DNA from: Alphaproteobacteria bacterium
GTDB taxonomy: Bacteria > Pseudomonadota > Alphaproteobacteria > MPNO01
NCBI GenBank assembly: GCA_965248835.1
Contig: CBDFLJ010000001.1
Span: 1,760,001 to 1,824,000, forward strand
Length of the DNA: 64,000 bases
Direction: 5' to 3'
A model generated the notes under the pieces. That model worked only from the letters and a program-made list of their open reading frames with translations. It made no database searches and was not told the DNA's origin. The translations under genes were made by a program, and so were the position numbers. Shown here one piece after another: positions 8,163 to 15,659 of the stretch; position 1 is the first letter of the stretch; each line of letters begins with the position of its first letter.

Positions 8163-9359
8163 TCACAGGCGCGGGTCGAGCGAGGGCAGCCCGAAGCGGA
8201 TGCGCCCGGCGTTGACCGACTGGATGTCCCAGGCCTGAGTGATCTGCATCGAGACCGCGTGCACGTCGCGCCAGGCGCGCATGAAGGGGCTGGTCTGGTC
8301 GAGCCCGCGCGCGCCCAGCAGCGGGTAAAGCCGCTCGACCGCGCGGACGCAGAGCTGGGTGGCATAGGCGTTGTTGCGCCGCCACCTGGCGCGTACCGGC
8401 AGCTCCGGGTGCTCGTCGGCCTCGGCGTAGCGCATCGATTCCTCGCCGCACTGGATCAGCAGCGCACCGGCGGCATCGATCTCCGAGGCGGCTTCCGCAA
8501 CCCGGATCTGCGCCGTCGGAAGCTCGGCCAGCTTGGCGCCGGTCACACCGGTGCGCTCGGCGAACAGGGTCTCGACATATTCGAGCGCGCCGCGGGCAAT
8601 GCCCAGCGCGGGCCCGGAAAAGATCTGCGTTCCCGTCGACCAGATCGAAATCCGGAACAGCGGCGAAGCGTTGCGTTCCGGGCTGAGCGAGCGGCCGCCG
8701 GACAGGTTGGCGGACGGCAGGGTCCGGTAGTCGGGAACGAACACCTCCTTCAGCAGGACCGATTTGCTGCCGGTGGCCAGCAGCCCGGTCGCGTTCCAGT
8801 CATCGACTACCGCGCATTCGCCGCGCGGGACCAGCACGAACCGGTGCTCCGGCGGACCGCTTTCGCGCGGCAGGAAGATCTGAAGGTTGAGCCAGTCGCA
8901 GTAGTCGACGCCGCTGGAGAAGCTCCACAGCCCGTCCAGCACCACGCCGCCGTCGACCTGTCTGGCGCCGCCGCCGGCCACGGCGAAACCCGAGGCCATC
9001 AGCGCCTCGGGGTTGTCGCCCCAGACATCGTCCTGGGCCTGCTCGTAGCCGCAGCCCAGCACCAGCGACTGGGCGGCGAGGTTGGTGAAGACCCAGGTGC
9101 TCGACCCGCAGCCGCGGCCGAGCTCGGCCGACAGATCGACCATGATGCGGTAGTCGCATTCCAGCCCGCCGAAATGGGCGGGCTGGAAGATGCGGTAGAA
9201 GCCCGCCTCGACGAACTCCCGATGGGTGATCTCGGGGATCACCCGGTTCGCTTCGGCCTCGTCGGCGCGCGCGCGCAGATCCGGGACCATGGCGGCCGCG
9301 CGCGCGATCAGCCCTTGATGCATCGCCTGGCGTTCGGCGCCGGCTGCGGCCCCTTCCAT
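8163..9359 (-). CDS. Flavin-dependent aromatic monooxygenase, oxygenase component (HsaA/C2-HpaH type, acyl-CoA dehydrogenase fold)
   Basis: 'GFYRIFQPAHFGG', 'GRGCGSSTW', 'WSFSSGVDYCDW', 'DDWNATGLLATGS', 'RAWRDVHA'. Confidence 0.85.
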   Translation of the reverse strand: MEGAAAGAERQAMHQGLIARAAAMVPDLRARADEAEANRVIPEITHREFVEAGFYRIFQPAHFGGLECDYRIMVDLSAELGRGCGSSTWVFTNLAAQSLVLGCGYEQAQDDVWGDNPEALMASGFAVAGGGARQVDGGVVLDGLWSFSSGVDYCDWLNLQIFLPRESGPPEHRFVLVPRGECAVVDDWNATGLLATGSKSVLLKEVFVPDYRTLPSANLSGGRSLSPERNASPLFRISIWSTGTQIFSGPALGIARGALEYVETLFAERTGVTGAKLAELPTAQIRVAEAASEIDAAGALLIQCGEESMRYAEADEHPELPVRARWRRNNAYATQLCVRAVERLYPLLGARGLDQTSPFMRAWRDVHAVSMQITQAWDIQSVNAGRIRFGLPSLDPRL

Positions 9360-9360
9360 G

Positions 9361-10998
9361 TCAGTCCTCCTCGCGCTCGACGTCGCGCACCGAGGTTTCG
9401 GGCACCAGCCCGGGCTGCTGGCGTTGCAGCGTGCGCCTGCCGTTCTCCAGATAATGCCCGTCGGCGGCGCGCTTCGCCGCCTGGTCCCAGTCCTCGGTCC
9501 AGTCGCCCAACGTATAGCCGTGCCAGGGCGATTCCGGCTTGAGGCCGGGCAGGCCCAGCCGCTCCCACAGGGCGCGCGCGCCTTCCATGTAGGCGCGCGC
9601 CGGCAAGGCCAGCGGCGGCATGCCGGATTTCATGGTCGCATCGATCAGCAGCGTAGAGTCCTCCTCGCCCGCGTGCTCGCGCTTGGGCCCGTGGCCCTGA
9701 CCGCGATGGGGAAGGATCGCGACGTCATCGGTCGGGTTATGGCGGTAGGCCATCGCCCAGAGCAGCGCATCGGCGTTGTCGGGATCGATGTCGTCATTGA
9801 CCGCGATGCAGATCTTGGAGCAGTCGCCCTTGAAGCTCGCCGTCCCGTAGAGCGCCCGCCAGACCTCGGTGCGCGGTGCGCCGCGCTCCAGCGTTACGAT
9901 GCTCACCCGCAACAGCCCGGTCAGCTTCTCGTGGAGCGCGACACCGGTGACCGCCTTCACCCCGAGCTGGTCGCGCAGGTGGGCGAGGAACAGCGGCTCG
10001 TAGGCGACGCGCTTGATCACCGAGGATTCGCTCGGTGCGACCTGGCTGATATAGGACGGGATCACCGGGTGCGCCTTGCGGGTGATCGCGCTCACCCGCA
10101 TCGGCAGGTTGTACTCCTCCAGCGCCACATGGCCGTGGCTCTCGCCGAACGGACCCTCCGGCTCCAGCATGGTGGTATCGATCATCCCCTCGATCACCAT
10201 CTCGGCCTCGGCCGGTACCAGCAGGTCGACGGTCTTGGCGCGCACGACGTTGATCGGCTCGCCGGCCAGCCCGCCGGCGATGTCGAACTCGTCGACATCG
10301 ACCTGCAGCTTCTGCGGACCCATGAACGCCACCAGCGGCGGGCAGCCAAGCACGATCGCGCACGGCAGGCCCTCGCCGCGCGCCTTGCATTTCTGCCAAT
10401 GGACGTAGCCGCCGGCCCCGCCCACCCGGGTCGCCATACGCACCACCAGCCGATCGGGCGCCTTCAGCCCGGCGCGGTAGGTGCCCATGTTCTGCACCCC
10501 CGTCTCCGGGTCCTTGGTGATGACGTTGGTGGCCGCAAGGGTCGGCGCGCTGTCGAAGCCGGGCGTCGAGATCGGGATCGGCAGGGCATCCAACCCGTTG
10601 CCCGGACCCCGCAGGGCCTCGCCCTCGATGACGACCTCCTGGCACGGCCCCTCGTTGACCAGCCGCGGCGGCACCGGGTTCGCCATCGCGTGGTCCCAGC
10701 GCGCCGGGATGTCGGCGACCTCGGCGCGCATGCCCTGGCTGTAGATGGCTTTGTTGGCCGCGAGCGCGCCGATCACCACCGGGATGTCGTAACGCCGGTC
10801 CAGGCTGTCGGTGACGGTGTTGAACAGGAAGGCCTTGCGCTCGCGCTCCTCCAGCCCGCCGCGGAACTGCCAGCGGACCAGCGGGTGCATCTCGGTGTCC
10901 TTGTTGACCGGCTCGTCGATCCGCAGCAGCAGCCCGGCCGCATCCAGCACCTCCAGATGCTCCTGCAGGTCGGCATAGCCGCGCCGCGCATGCACCAT
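9361..10998 (-). CDS. UbiD-family (prFMN-dependent) decarboxylase
   Basis: 'QNMGTYR', 'VPAEAEMVIEG', 'EGPFGESHG', 'VNDDID', 'LLIDAT'. Confidence 0.9.
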   Translation of the reverse strand: MVHARRGYADLQEHLEVLDAAGLLLRIDEPVNKDTEMHPLVRWQFRGGLEERERKAFLFNTVTDSLDRRYDIPVVIGALAANKAIYSQGMRAEVADIPARWDHAMANPVPPRLVNEGPCQEVVIEGEALRGPGNGLDALPIPISTPGFDSAPTLAATNVITKDPETGVQNMGTYRAGLKAPDRLVVRMATRVGGAGGYVHWQKCKARGEGLPCAIVLGCPPLVAFMGPQKLQVDVDEFDIAGGLAGEPINVVRAKTVDLLVPAEAEMVIEGMIDTTMLEPEGPFGESHGHVALEEYNLPMRVSAITRKAHPVIPSYISQVAPSESSVIKRVAYEPLFLAHLRDQLGVKAVTGVALHEKLTGLLRVSIVTLERGAPRTEVWRALYGTASFKGDCSKICIAVNDDIDPDNADALLWAMAYRHNPTDDVAILPHRGQGHGPKREHAGEEDSTLLIDATMKSGMPPLALPARAYMEGARALWERLGLPGLKPESPWHGYTLGDWTEDWDQAAKRAADGHYLENGRRTLQRQQPGLVPETSVRDVEREED

Positions 10999-11167
10999 CC
11001 CCGCCACTCCCCGAAGAACGCTCAACCCGGATTTGCCGCCATGATGCCATAGCCGGCCCGGCGGGAAACAGCCTTCTCTGGCGCGGCCCGGTGTGGCACT
11101 GTCATGCTCGGCATGTTCGGGCCGGTCCAGCGTGCTCGGCACATGCCCGGTCAGGCGGAGGGGTTGG

Positions 11168-12151
11168 ATGGGCAAGCCCGACATTACCGACGCGCAGCGG
11201 CCGGCGCGTACACGGGTCGGCGGCGTCGACGTCAAGCGCACCGCGCAGTTCCGCGCGCGCTTCCCGCCCGCGGCCAAGCGCCACCTGTTCATCCGCGACC
11301 ATGTGCTGTTCGAACAGCGCGACACGCCGGTCAATCCCGACCGGACCGAGGACATCGACGCGGACGCGACTGCGCGCTGGATCAAGGACTGGGTGCTGGA
11401 GGCCGGCGCCGATGCCGTCGGCATCGCAGCCTATGACGAGCGCTTCACCTTCGCCCAGGCCGACCAGCCCGGCCACACCGCGGTGATCGTCTACGCGATG
11501 GCGATGAAATACGACTACATGGCCGATATCGGCCCGCGGTCCCAGGACGAGGTCCACCGGATCTACTACCGACTCGACGATCTCGGTGTCCGGCTCGCCC
11601 ACCAGATCGGCGGGTTCGGCTACCGCGCGCGGATGCAGGCCAACGGCGGCGATATCCCGCTGGTGCCGTTCGCCTGGCTCGCCGGGCTGGGCGAGCTCGG
11701 CAAGCACGGCTCGCTGATCTCGACCGAGCTGGGCTCGTCCTTCCGACTGGGGGCGGTGACCACCGACCTGCCGCTGACCCCCGACGGGCCGCGCGATTCG
11801 GGGATCGACGAGGTCTGCGCCTCGTGCAACATCTGCACCCGGTTCTGCCCGGGCGATGCGATCAAGCCCGACAAGCAGACCGTCGCCGGTGTCGAGCGCT
11901 GGATCGTCGACCGGCCGGCTTGCGAGCCGTGGTTCCACAAGCTCTATGGCTGCAAGATCTGCCTGATGGTCTGTCCGTTCAACGCCAAGAGCATCTTCGC
12001 CGACAGCTTCAAGCCGACCGCGCGCGACATCCGCGACGCCAAGGACGCGAACGGCCTGCTGGCGCTGATCGAATCGCGCACCGAGATGCACTACGACGCG
12101 TTCGATTACGGCGCCTCGGGCGCACCCGCGATCGCGCCCGACGAGGACTGA
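11168..12151 (+). CDS. Reductive dehalogenase / QueG superfamily protein (cobalamin and 2x Fe-S), no TAT signal
   Basis: 'GADAVGIA', 'AGLGELGKHGSLI', 'FRLGAVTTDLPLTPD', CxxCxxCxxxCP (CASCNICTRFCP), C...GCKICLMVCP. Confidence 0.8.
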   Translation: MGKPDITDAQRPARTRVGGVDVKRTAQFRARFPPAAKRHLFIRDHVLFEQRDTPVNPDRTEDIDADATARWIKDWVLEAGADAVGIAAYDERFTFAQADQPGHTAVIVYAMAMKYDYMADIGPRSQDEVHRIYYRLDDLGVRLAHQIGGFGYRARMQANGGDIPLVPFAWLAGLGELGKHGSLISTELGSSFRLGAVTTDLPLTPDGPRDSGIDEVCASCNICTRFCPGDAIKPDKQTVAGVERWIVDRPACEPWFHKLYGCKICLMVCPFNAKSIFADSFKPTARDIRDAKDANGLLALIESRTEMHYDAFDYGASGAPAIAPDED

Positions 12152-12165
12152 GACGGCGCGCCGGG

Positions 12166-12187
12166 CGGACCGGACGTCGCCGGTCCG
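12166..12187. terminator. GC-rich hairpin between the dehalogenase-like and deiodinase-like genes
   Basis: CGGACCGG-acgtcg-CCGGTCCG perfect 8-bp stem; no immediate U-tract. Confidence 0.35.
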
Positions 12188-12263
12188 GGCAGGCGGTTTG
12201 ACAGGCTCCGGCCGAAATGGTCGGTTCCGGTCATCGCATGGATATCAACGAGGATCGAGGCTG

Positions 12264-12953
12264 ATGGCCGAACCGGGACTCTCCGTCGAGCAGAGAGCCA
12301 TGAAGGGCGCGCAGATGACGCCCGAGGAACGCAAGCGGATGTGGTTGTCGATTTCCGACATCACCGAGGCCGAGTTCGACGCCTACCATGACTGGCGCCG
12401 GGAACGTCAGTCGCGGGTGCCGCAGCCCGGCAGTCCGGCGCCGGATTTCGAGCTCGAAGGGCTCGGCGCCGACGGCGCGCGCACCGGCCGGCGGGTGCGG
12501 CTGTCGGCGCTCAAGGGCACGCCGGTGGCGCTGGTCTTCGGGTCCTATACCTGACCCCCCTATCGTAGTTGGGCCGTGCGCCTGAACGAGATCTATGACC
12601 GCCACAAGGACCGGGACATCCGGTTCTACGCCGTCTATATCCGCGAGGCCCATCCCAGCAATGGCTGGCAGGTGCCGGAAAACCTGGAGGAGAACATCCT
12701 CTACGAGGCGCCCACCACCGATGCGGCGCGCACCGAGATCGCCGCCGCCTGCCGGGTGGCGATGGACATCCAGATGCCGATGCTGATCGACTGGATCGGC
12801 AACGACGTGGAGGAGAAATACGTCTCCACCCCGATCCGGCTGTTCGTCGTCGATCCCGACGGGCGCATCGCCTATACCGGCGATGCCGGACCGTTCGGCT
12901 TCGATCCGGACTCCTGGGAGGAGGCGATCAAGGCCCAGATCGCCGCCGCCTGA
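12264..12953 (+). CDS. Iodothyronine deiodinase-like thioredoxin-fold selenoprotein (Sec at TGA 12552-12554)
   Basis: ORFs 12198-12554 and 12576-12953 share a frame; read-through gives PVALVFGSYT-U-PPY...VYIREAHPSNGW...GPFGF, matching deiodinase FGS(C/A)TUP(P/S)F and YIxEAHxSDGW motifs. Confidence 0.88.
12563..12589 (+). promoter_or_regulatory. Candidate bacterial SECIS element
   Basis: TCGT-(AG)-TTGGGC-[CGTGC]-GCCTGA-ACGA can pair as a stem-loop; the loop starts 20 nt after the TGA and has G at loop position 2. Confidence 0.6.
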
Positions 12954-13165
12954 GACGCGGCCGCGGCCCGCTCGGCACCGCCGTGCCGGCCGGGGGGGTG
13001 GGGAGTCCGGGTGGTTTTATCGTTCCGATGCGGCGCGGGCTGTGTCTGCGTGCTGACGGCACGCACCGGTCCCGGAATGCGCCTTGCGGCGGCGCGCTTG
13101 ACCGCGTTGCCCGCTTCGGCAATAGACTTGCACGCGAGCGACCTGGAGAGCGAGCCATCGAGACG

Positions 13166-14353
13166 GTGAAGCGGGCGCTTCGGCTCATTGCCGCGGCGGC
13201 GATATTCCTGCCGGTGATGACGGGCGGGTATTCGGCGGCGGCGCAAACCTTCGACGAAGTCCTCGCGGCATACGACCGCGGCGACTACGCTACGGCCTAC
13301 CGCGGATTCCGAAGCCTTGCGGAGCAGGGCATTGCCACCGGTCAGTTCGGTCTCGGGTTCCTGTACGCCAACGGCAAGGGCGTCCCCCGGGATGATGCTT
13401 TGGCCCTGAGGTGGTACCGCCGCGCCGCCGCGCAGGGCCATGCCGCCGCTCAGTTCAATCTCGGGCTCATGTACTATAACGGCGAGGGCGTCCCCCGGGA
13501 TTATGCCGAGGCGGCGAGGTGGTACCGCCGCGCCGCCGCGCAGGGCCGTGCCGCCGCGCAGTTCAATCTCGGGTTCATGTACGGCAACGGCAAGGGCGTC
13601 CCCCGGGACTATGCCGAGGCGGCGAGGTGGTACCGTCGCGCCGCCGAGCAGGGCCATGCCCACGCTCAGTTCAATCTCGGGCTCATGTACTATAACGGCG
13701 AGGGTGTCCCTCGGGACGAAGCCGAGGCGGCGACGTGGTACCGCCGCGCCGCCGCGCAGGGCCGTGCCGCCGCGCAGTTAAATCTCGGGTTCCTGTACTA
13801 CAAGGGCGAGGGCGTCGCCCAGGACTACGCCTTGGCGGTGACATGGTACCGCCGCGCCGCAGAGCAAGGCGATGCCCGCGCTCAGTTCGGTCTTGCACTC
13901 ATGTACGAACTCGGCCGAGGTGTTCCCCGGGACTTCGTTGAGGCGCACAGGTGGTTCAACCTTGCCGCCGCCCGATCCTCGGCCTCGCAGAAGGCCTTGC
14001 GTAAACGGGCCGTGCAACGCCGCGACCACGTTGCGGCGCGTCTGACGGCGGCGGCGCTCGAGCGGGCCCGGCGGCTGGCGAGAACCTGGCGGCCCGGGAC
14101 GGAGACGGCTCTGCCGACACCGCCGGCGGCAGGCAAGGACGGCGGTATGCGTAGCCGGGTGGCCATGCTGCAACGCGCTCTCGCGCGGCTCGGCTACGAC
14201 GCCGGGTCCGCCGACGGGGTCCTCGACTCCAAGACCCGTGCTGCGATCCGGGCATTCCAGGCATCGGCCGGGCTGCCGGCGGACGGCCGCCTGTCCGAAC
14301 GGCTGGAGAGCGCGGTCATATCCGCCCTTCTCGCCGCCGGCGCCGCGCCATAA
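13166..14353 (+). CDS. Secreted Sel1-repeat protein with C-terminal peptidoglycan-binding domain
   Basis: Signal peptide, six 36-aa Sel1 repeats, PGBD 'LQRALARLGYDAGSADGVLDSKTRAAIRAFQ...GLPADG'. Confidence 0.88.
   Translation: MKRALRLIAAAAIFLPVMTGGYSAAAQTFDEVLAAYDRGDYATAYRGFRSLAEQGIATGQFGLGFLYANGKGVPRDDALALRWYRRAAAQGHAAAQFNLGLMYYNGEGVPRDYAEAARWYRRAAAQGRAAAQFNLGFMYGNGKGVPRDYAEAARWYRRAAEQGHAHAQFNLGLMYYNGEGVPRDEAEAATWYRRAAAQGRAAAQLNLGFLYYKGEGVAQDYALAVTWYRRAAEQGDARAQFGLALMYELGRGVPRDFVEAHRWFNLAAARSSASQKALRKRAVQRRDHVAARLTAAALERARRLARTWRPGTETALPTPPAAGKDGGMRSRVAMLQRALARLGYDAGSADGVLDSKTRAAIRAFQASAGLPADGRLSERLESAVISALLAAGAAP
13319..13966 (+). repeat. Six tandem 108-bp Sel1-coding repeats
   Basis: Recurring 'tggtaccgccgcgccgcc..cagggc...cagttcaatctcggg' with 108-nt period. 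Confidence 0.85.
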
Positions 14354-14696: not shown

Positions 14697-15659
14697 TCAG
14701 GGCAGCAGGAGGTGGTTGTTGCCGCCGAGGATGAAGGCGCCGTCGTCCGGGATCTCGGCGATGGCATCGACGAAGGCCTTGACGGCCTCGTTCTTCCGGA
14801 TCTCCTGCGGGTAGTCGCTGGCGAAGACGATGCGCTCGGCCGGCAGCTCGACCAGGGACGTCTTGACCGAGCGGGCATCGCCGCAGAACCCGGCGGTGTC
14901 GAACACCATGCGCTCGGCAAGGTAGGAGTCGAAATCCCGCCCCGGATTGCGGCCGTGGCGGTCGTTGCCGGCGGTGCCCCAGAAGTCGCGGTCCTGGTAG
15001 GAACGGATACGGCCCAGCACCGAGGCGATGCCGCCGCCGAGATGCGCCATCTGCACCGTGAGGTCGGGATGGCGGTCGAAGACGCCGCCGTTGATCAACC
15101 GCACCGTCGCCTGGACCAGCGAGAACTCGCGGCCGACCGCGCGGGCGAGGTCATAGGCGTCGAACTGGCGGGGATGGCTGAGCCTGAGCGCGGGATGGAC
15201 GAAGACGTAGAGCCCGAGGCGCGCGGCCTCGGCCCAGAACGGGTCGAGCTCCGGCGCATCCAGCCCGATGCCGTCGAACTCCGAGGTGATCACCACGCCG
15301 GGGAAGCCGAGTTCGTCGGCGCAGCGCCGCAGCTCCGCCATCGCCTCTTCCCCGCCCAGCGGGTGGGCGTGCGCGGTGCCGATGAACCGGCCCGGATAAG
15401 CGCGCTCGGCGGCCTTGGCGGCATCGTTGCAGATGACCGATTTCTCGAGCGGCGCGCACATCCCCTCGGCACACGACAGCACCGCCGCCCCGATGCCGGC
15501 AACGTCCATCATCGCGATATGGGCATCGAGGTCGACCAGCAGCGAATGGAAGCTGTAGGACGGCACCCCGTGCTCGTCATAGCGGGTGAACGGCCGCTCG
15601 GCCGCGCCCTCGGGCAGCAGTGCCGGCGGCACGAAATGGTGCTGGAAATCGACGATCAT
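14697..15659 (-). CDS. Amidohydrolase_2 family protein (ACMSD-like decarboxylase/hydrolase)
   Basis: 'DFQHH', 'VFVHP', 'AHLGG', 'FASDYP'. Confidence 0.88.
   Translation of the reverse strand: MIVDFQHHFVPPALLPEGAAERPFTRYDEHGVPSYSFHSLLVDLDAHIAMMDVAGIGAAVLSCAEGMCAPLEKSVICNDAAKAAERAYPGRFIGTAHAHPLGGEEAMAELRRCADELGFPGVVITSEFDGIGLDAPELDPFWAEAARLGLYVFVHPALRLSHPRQFDAYDLARAVGREFSLVQATVRLINGGVFDRHPDLTVQMAHLGGGIASVLGRIRSYQDRDFWGTAGNDRHGRNPGRDFDSYLAERMVFDTAGFCGDARSVKTSLVELPAERIVFASDYPQEIRKNEAVKAFVDAIAEIPDDGAFILGGNNHLLLP

Follow-up and report, generated by a model that had tools for sequence, protein, structure and literature searches.

The window analysed here, a stretch of 64,000 nucleotides from an alphaproteobacterial genome of the lineage MPNO01 (assembly GCA_965248835.1, contig CBDFLJ010000001.1, positions 1,760,001 to 1,824,000 of the forward strand), contains at positions 12264-12953 a deiodinase-like gene interrupted by an in-frame TGA codon. 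Comparison of its sequence with those of its homologues indicates that the gene very probably encodes a single cytoplasmic enzyme of the deiodinase family, 229 residues long and with a thioredoxin fold, in which the catalytic residue 97 is selenocysteine (Sec). The codon is conserved among related loci, it is followed by a covarying hairpin that would serve as a selenocysteine insertion sequence (SECIS), and the genome carries the complete machinery for Sec incorporation. The locus is a well-supported, ordinary member of a known selenoprotein family. Its elements are as follows.

12250-12254 and 12257-12260, + strand: Shine-Dalgarno-like GAGGA and GAGG, 5' of the ATG at 12264, from direct reading of the sequence
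12264..12953, + strand: deiodinase-like selenoprotein gene, 229 codons and a terminal TGA stop at 12951-12953, a single frame when TGA is read as Sec (U)
12552..12554, + strand: in-frame UGA read as selenocysteine, residue 97 in FGSYT-U-PPYR, from alignment with the Sec-to-Cys site of Dio3 and Dio2 and from TGA or Cys in homologues
12563..12589, + strand: full hairpin, adding to the core the pair 12569-12585, a 2-nt bulge and a lower stem 12563-12566/12586-12589, from the minimum free energy (MFE) fold
12570..12584, + strand: core SECIS hairpin, a 5-bp stem 12570-12574/12580-12584 with the apical loop CGUGC at 12575-12579, from RNAalifold

A preliminary description of this region had read TTC GGG TCC TAT ACC TGA CCC CCC TAT CGT as a deiodinase active site with an in-frame UGA, in a frame that stays open to 12953, and direct reading of the sequence bears this out. 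The ten codons occupy 12537-12566 and, if the internal TGA is Sec, the frame is open throughout from the ATG at 12264 to the TGA at 12951-12953, including both FGSYT-U-PPYR and YIREAHPSNGW. The start Met at 12264 is aligned in the closest homologues. The expectation that gene callers would split the gene also proved right: translation table 11 yields two open reading frames (ORFs), 12198-12554 (118 residues) and 12576-12953 (125 residues), and the relatives present in the public protein collection are mostly 126-residue C-terminal fragments labelled hypothetical or unnamed, from which it follows that gene callers cut the gene at the TGA. The epithet "hidden", used in the same description, fits the annotation and not the biology, because deiodinase-like selenoproteins of bacteria were already published in 2005 (PMC1088965).

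Across the genomes compared, the TGA behaves as a conserved codon and not as a lesion. A search of 61 related genomes, counting that of the window, gave a match in 44 (19/19, 0/2, 15/17, 9/17 and 0/5 by family), the window's own genome having only one. In-frame TGA is present in 67 of the 71 places listed in these genomes and in all 59 of the strongest. Read at the DNA level, 59 of 60 related loci carry FGS[YF]T-TGA-PP[FY]R at the same column, the 60th being of another form. The alignment of 57 related proteins, which are 40-84% identical to the window protein, has invariant residues flanking the TGA on both sides, among them F92, G93, S94, T96, U97, P98, P99, R101, Y125, E128, A129, H130, C163 and R192. 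The pattern extends well beyond these genomes. A scan of one genome per prokaryote species gave 594 stretches that encode a relative, and in the best 80 of the 594, about 14 of which appear to duplicate loci of the related set, TGA stands at the column in 79 (FGS[YFW]T-TGA-PP[FY] in 78 and FGSFT-TGA-GPF in 1), the remaining locus having Cys. The titles of these records name Alpha- and Betaproteobacteria, Acidobacteriota, Actinomycetota, Planctomycetota, Chloroflexota, Myxococcota and others. Of 400 other genomes sampled evenly across the phylum, 5 had a match at E <= 1e-15, none of them with a stop, and the Cys homologues from this sample (26-31% identity) read FGCYTCPVFR or FGSYSCPHHR at the DNA level. 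With Cys in these distant homologues, the site shows the Sec/Cys pairing that a selenoprotein should have. The preliminary description had looked to homologues for Cys or UGA at this site, and this is what they carry; TGG was not found there in any of the 140 loci read at the DNA level.

A few relatives depart from the common form. Two of the 59 loci, which were excluded from the protein alignment, look damaged elsewhere: L055 has an extra in-frame TAA soon after the hairpin and L079 is split by a frame change, and both may be pseudogenes or errors of draft-genome assembly. Three relatives (L080, L089 and L090), one of them of the same genus, have a UxxC form of the Sec site, FGSFT-TGA-PFC or FGSFT-TGA-PYC. 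One locus (L138) carries two paralogous selenoprotein genes of the TUPPF type about 1.6 kb apart on opposite strands.

The hairpin 3' of the UGA is the second element conserved among the relatives. Its core stem begins 15 nt past the UGA and its loop 20 nt past the A of the UGA, with G-U at positions 2-3 of the loop CGUGC. The structure at 12563-12589, with a loop at this distance and an early G, had been pointed out in the preliminary description; it is included in the MFE fold of 12540-12620, with an upper stem 12569-12574/12580-12585, and compensatory changes preserve its core. In an ungapped alignment of 59 related loci (57 columns, column 1 corresponding to 12546; 58 distinct rows), RNAalifold predicted, unaided, a stem of columns 25-29/35-39, that is, 12570-12574/12580-12584. 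All 5 core pairs form in 58 of the 58 distinct rows, and two of them vary widely in composition: 12570-12584 (columns 25-39) occurs as AU, CG, GC, UG and GU, and 12573-12581 (columns 28-36) as GC, UA, AU, GU and UG. The covariation score of the core together with the pair 12569-12585 is 0.514, compared with 0.172 for shuffled alignments (reached by 0 of 500 shuffles) and at most 0.144 when the pairing partners are slid. In both variable pairs, the base on the 3' arm occupies the third position of a codon, Arg CGN in one pair and Leu CTN in the other. Where the 5' arm encodes Trp, Gln, Lys, Glu, Arg or Gly, the paired Leu codon is CTG, CTG, CTT, CTC, CTG or CTC, respectively, and where it encodes Ala, Thr or Ser, the paired Arg codon is CGC, CGT or CGA. 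Synonymous choices of Arg and Leu codons thus track the amino acid changes of the 5' arm, and coding constraint therefore fails to explain the covariation. In an unselected set of 137 sequences, 87.2% of the cells pair, compared with 73.4% after shuffling (0/500 reach the observed value) and at most 50.2% after sliding, and a pair that is invariant in the first set shows a change from G-C to U-A.

The lower part of the hairpin is kept only partly, each of its four pairs forming in 27 to 54 of the 58 rows and the pair 12569-12585 in 35 of 58; the lower stem 12563-12566/12586-12589, being poorly kept among relatives, was dropped as a part of the conserved element. Like the fdhF-type SECIS of Escherichia coli, the window hairpin lies in frame shortly after the UGA, has G-U in a small apical loop and is presumably read by SelB. 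Compared with these general features of the fdhF element, the window hairpin differs in sequence and stem, its stem beginning 15 nt past the UGA. Acidobacterial and actinobacterial homologues in the range L185-L226, which covers other phyla, seem to have different, shifted hairpins 3' of the same TGA, for example GGCGGG-AGGTT-CCCGCC.

All four components of the Sec pathway named in the preliminary description, selA, selB, selC and selD, were found above their cut-offs in the genome, which comprises 4.89 Mb in 2 contigs and is scored 100% complete and 9.51% contaminated.

C1:494681-495598: selD, 309 bits, above the curated cut-off
C1:1178871-1180211: selA, 559 bits, above the curated cut-off
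C1:1180244-1182127: selB, 444 bits, above the curated cut-off
C1:1184331-1184426: tRNA-Sec, called by aragorn and scoring 74.7 bits in Rfam (cut-off 47)

According to aragorn, there is one tRNA-Trp, with the anticodon CCA, and the tRNA-Sec is the only tRNA with a TCA anticodon. TGA is otherwise a stop in this genome, as the terminal TGA of the gene itself and this tRNA list indicate. Together, the conserved TGA, the covarying stem and the Sec machinery support the proposal of one 229-residue Sec protein. On this basis, SelB carrying Sec-tRNA(Sec) would bind the hairpin 15 nt past the UGA at 12552-12554, the tRNA having been charged by SelA from selenophosphate supplied by SelD; Sec would then be inserted and translation would continue to the true stop at 12951-12953.

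Several observations nevertheless weigh against this reading. The hairpin on its own is not unusually stable (z = +0.80, with 159 of 200 shuffles folding at least as well), and a permissive Rfam scan of 12000-13200 gave chance-level matches only and no SECIS family. Since the fold of the single sequence is unremarkable, the case for a SECIS rests on comparison among homologues, and even there all five pairs in the register of the window form in only 39 of 78 loci of the wide set: loci from outside the proteobacterial group have a shifted or otherwise different hairpin, which suggests lineage-specific forms of the SECIS on one protein family. The protein scores 160.8 bits with the NCBIfam model NF038285 ("deiodinase family protein"), under the cut-off of 250, and matches only the C-terminal half of that model (positions 176-340 of 347, E 5.7e-47). 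Finally, 3 of the 12 full-length database homologues that were aligned, at the protein level only, have W at the Sec site, for which our guess is translation of TGA under another table. These three sequences are what speaks for decoding of the UGA as Trp, or for general read-through, instead of Sec, an explanation that we regard as very improbable: the single tRNA-Trp has the anticodon CCA and nothing besides tRNA-Sec has UCA, the gene is itself terminated by TGA, TGG is absent from the site in the loci read at the DNA level, and the distant homologues have Cys, the usual counterpart of Sec. That the TGA is instead a nonsense mutation or an assembly error, leaving a pseudogene or two small unrelated genes, would agree with the two ORFs of 118 and 125 residues, with the listing of a 126-residue half as a protein in public collections and with the contamination score of the genome. 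However, the same TGA recurs in all but one locus of each set (59 of 60 and 79 of 80), with protein sequence conserved on either side of it, the GTG start of the second ORF (12576) falls within the loop of the hairpin, and the covarying hairpin is accompanied by a complete Sec system, so that we consider a lesion exceedingly improbable.

Read through the TGA, the protein matches the Pfam family PF00837 (T4_deiodinase) with 67.1 bits over residues 82-216 (gathering cut-off 27). AhpC-TSA (PF00578; 41.7 bits, cut-off 26) and Redoxin (27.3 bits) also exceed their cut-offs; the match to PF00578 denotes membership of the superfamily only. Searched by sequence against the PDB, the protein comes closest to mouse Dio3 (4tr3, E 2.4e-14), with mouse Dio2 (9h48, E 7.3e-11) next, and the TGA is aligned to the Sec-to-Cys position of both crystal constructs. 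An AlphaFold2 model built from 57 homologues (mean predicted local distance difference test score 92.3; predicted template modelling score 0.87) retrieves the same two structures, 9h48 and 4tr3, at the head of a Foldseek search of the PDB, with ResA, CcmG and peroxiredoxins after them. Identity to Dio2 and Dio3 over the aligned fold is 24-25%. The N-terminus is a polar helical extension of about 50 residues with no hydrophobic stretch. In Dio2, the proton relay is formed by Ser127, Thr129, Tyr157, Glu160, His162 and His182, with Trp167 as a stacking partner (PMC11592359). Ser94, Thr96, Tyr125, Glu128, His130 and Trp135 of the window protein align with Dio2 Ser127, Thr129, Tyr157, Glu160, His162 and Trp167, and 5 of the 6 relay residues are kept, in columns that are invariant or nearly so in the alignment. 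Cys163 is invariant in the subfamily, as is Arg192 in the strand R-L-F-V-V-D. At +3 from Sec, each of the 57 aligned sequences has Tyr or Phe; in the window protein the site reads U-P-P-Y and a UxxC motif is absent.

By analogy with these relatives, the selenolate would act as nucleophile from the N-terminal end of the fold's first helix, backed by a hydrogen-bond relay of Ser94, Thr96, Tyr125, Glu128, His130 and Trp135 and by the peroxiredoxin-type Arg192. It might attack an electrophilic atom of a small substrate to give an Se-X or Se-OH intermediate, which a thiol, possibly that of the invariant Cys163, would resolve, a cellular thiol system then acting as the reductant. Two substitutions tell against carrying the deiodinase chemistry over unchanged: the second relay His of Dio2, His182, aligns with Thr, and Met169 takes the place of the distal Cys found in Dio2 and Dio3.

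The closest published counterparts are the bacterial "deiodinase-like protein" selenoproteins which, together with their Cys homologues and a bacterial SECIS, were reported from the Sargasso Sea in 2005 by Zhang, Fomenko and Gladyshev (PMC1088965). They share with the window gene the PF00837 domain, the in-frame UGA at the Sec position of deiodinases, the existence of Cys homologues and a SECIS of bacterial type that closely follows the UGA and has a G within its small apical loop. By contrast, two reviews, of 2022 (PMC9312934) and 2026 (PMC13188914), list the family with the motif UxxC, whereas the window protein has U-P-P-Y, as do animal deiodinases. The mismatch looks like a difference between subfamilies, because the listed motif comes from one representative sequence, and we do not claim the UPPF form as new, since it may be among the four sequences of PMC1088965.

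The window protein shares with vertebrate Dio1-3 the motifs FGSxT-U-PP[FY] and YIxEAHPSxGW (here FGSYT-U-PPY and YIREAHPSNGW), the relay residues Ser, Thr, Tyr, Glu, His and Trp, and the insertion between strand and helix. It differs from them in having no hydrophobic N-terminal anchor, in a SECIS that lies inside the coding region and not in the 3' untranslated region, and in the replacement of the second relay His by Thr and of the distal Cys by Met, with an invariant Cys163 of its own. The likeness to NF038285, a model of 347 positions, is confined to the C-terminal catalytic half; Cys homologues from the phylum sample, with frames of 311-362 residues, fit the length of the model, the N-terminal half of which is absent from the window protein. 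With peroxiredoxins of the AhpC-TSA type and ResA-type proteins, the window protein has in common the thioredoxin fold, a nucleophile placed where the first helix begins and a conserved Arg that precedes the central strand, but it differs in its deiodinase insertion and motifs and in the absence of both CxxC and UxxC.

The neighbourhood of the gene bears on its possible function. In the window, the selenoprotein gene is preceded on the same strand by a gene of the RdhA/QueG superfamily and flanked by further genes as follows.

8163-9359, - strand: acyl-CoA-dehydrogenase-type-2 protein, its start abutting the stop of the UbiD-family gene
9361-11424, - strand: UbiD-family decarboxylase, listed as an ORF with a long N-terminal extension that overlaps the RdhA-like gene
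11093..12151, + strand: RdhA/QueG-superfamily protein (B12 and two 4Fe-4S type), ~330-350 residues, ending 112 nt before the start of the selenoprotein gene
12983-14353: Sel1-repeat/peptidoglycan-binding protein
14697-15659, - strand: amidohydrolase_2 protein (decarboxylase type)

The product of 11093-12151 scores 108.5 bits with the reductive dehalogenase model TIGR02486 (cut-off 160) and 77 bits with QueG (cut-off 200), under the cut-off in both cases, and its matches in the PDB include NpRdhA (4ras, E 1.5e-20) and PceA (4uqu, E 7e-18). The genome has three further matches to TIGR02486, including one frame of the size of NpRdhA on contig 2. The flanks of 58 loci were surveyed over 7-10 kb where contigs allowed, and the best 80 of the 594 stretches served as a second set. 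RdhA-type genes lie near the selenoprotein gene in 9 of the 58 loci. L092 and L111, two relatives, repeat the adjacency seen in the window; another family has, in five of its loci, a full orthologue of NpRdhA (4ras, E 2e-202) 1.5-5.1 kb away on the other strand; and 5.2 kb separate a small RdhA-like gene from a paralogue (L130). The second set adds 1 locus in 80, an actinomycetotal record (L196) with an NpRdhA-like gene about 4.3 kb away, for a total of 10 of about 124 loci with an RdhA-type gene within about 7 kb, in four arrangements. By our own rough arithmetic, typically with 4-5 copies per genome of about 4 Mb, chance would place such a gene within 7 kb in about 1 of 58 loci. Co-occurrence at the level of whole genomes was set aside as uninformative, 53 of the 61 related genomes having an RdhA-like gene, typically in 4-5 copies and in up to 10. 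The RdhA-type neighbourhood is sparse but recurrent and, being suggestive only, is a lead and not a finding. In the one literature library that was searched, no paper mentions both NpRdhA and a selenoprotein.

A second recurrent arrangement involves the Sec machinery itself. In 10 of the 58 loci, all from one related family (L100, L102, L103, L105, L122-L124 and L126-L128), selA and selB lie directly 3' of the gene on the same strand, and in one further locus of the 58 they lie 3.3-5.2 kb upstream; the identity of SelA and SelB was confirmed by Pfam in three of the selA-selB loci. Five loci of the second set (L163, L164 and L167-L169) likewise have selA-selB after the gene on its own strand; L163 and L167 are apparent duplicates of loci of the first set. 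In L152, selA-selB are located upstream on the other strand. The first gene of this apparent dio-selA-selB operon itself requires the products of the next two; conceivably, the reading of its UGA might tie production of the Sec machinery to the supply of selenium.

Two kinds of substrate are the main candidates, with a smaller chance for something else; a thyronine is not expected. On the one hand, the protein may be a peroxiredoxin-like selenol peroxidase or a thiol-selenol oxidoreductase acting on a peroxide or another oxidised sulphur or oxygen species, with no link to halogens and with dehalogenase-like neighbours by chance, an assignment that we put forward tentatively. It is in line with the scores above cut-off for AhpC-TSA and Redoxin, with the appearance of ResA, CcmG and peroxiredoxins directly after the two deiodinases among the fold matches, and with the invariant Arg192, which would correspond to the catalytic Arg of peroxiredoxins. 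A housekeeping role is suggested by the 10 of 58 loci in which selA-selB come directly after the gene. A redox role was also proposed by the authors of the family (PMC1088965). Yet a generic peroxiredoxin would not need the conserved deiodinase-specific insertion and relay, the redox motif UxxC of the reviews is replaced by U-P-P-Y, and the PxxxTxxC spacing of peroxiredoxins is unmatched.

On the other hand, it is conceivable, though rather doubtful, that the substrate is a halogenated phenolic compound and that the enzyme carries out a deiodinase-like dehalogenation, as a B12-independent reductive dehalogenase of ortho-halogenated phenolics working in the same catabolic context as the adjoining RdhA-type enzymes. 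The selenolate would then take the halogen as X+ while the relay protonated the ring, as in animal deiodinases, a scheme for which we hold out equally modest expectations. What points this way beyond the thioredoxin fold is the retention of the deiodinase-specific T-U-P-P-[FY] and YIxEAHPxxGW motifs with the insertion between them. The genomic context adds the RdhA/QueG-like gene 112 nt upstream here and in two relatives, the NpRdhA orthologues in 5 loci of another family, the RdhA-like genes near the L130 paralogue and in L196, the excess of 9 RdhA-proximal loci over the chance expectation, and the decarboxylase genes of the UbiD and amidohydrolase_2 types nearby in the window. NpRdhA itself debrominates 3,5-dibromo-4-hydroxybenzoate (PMC7565698). 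However, the 10 loci amount to only four arrangements, in which kin are not independent, and about 114 of the roughly 124 loci, with the approximately 14 apparent duplicates counted once, have no RdhA-like gene in the flanks examined. RdhA-like genes are, moreover, abundant in the order. The NpRdhA orthologue occurs without the selenoprotein in same-genus genomes (for example G029 and G052), and the selenoprotein occurs without an RdhA match in G049, G051 and G059. Furthermore, the protein lacks the proposed thyronine-binding residues of Dio3.

Whichever substrate applies, the deiodinase-family selenoprotein at 12264-12953 is a clean case of a selenoprotein cut in two by standard gene calling, from a subfamily present in loci of many phyla. 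What is added here to the known family is a clearly covarying SECIS, the dio-selA-selB order in one related family and the sparse but recurrent RdhA neighbourhood, the latter two being cheap, testable leads for the family. A broader and unlikely scenario is that the T-U-P-P-F Sec enzymes are cobalamin-independent reductive dehalogenases of natural ortho-halophenolics which were recruited beside catabolic RdhA in several lineages, and that animal deiodinases descend from that chemistry.

Some features of the flanking sequence concern annotation. The true start of the UbiD-family ORF probably lies later than listed. Among sequencing runs, no RNA data set is listed for 11000-13100. A scan of 10900-13300, which includes the gap between the RdhA-like and the selenoprotein genes, revealed no promoter-like or terminator-like site, and the same scan did not call a T-run terminator at a perfect 6-bp hairpin, CGGCAC-CGCC-GTGCCG (12973-12988, + strand), which begins 19 nt past the terminal TGA of the gene. 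The listed GTG start of the next ORF (12983) sits within this hairpin.

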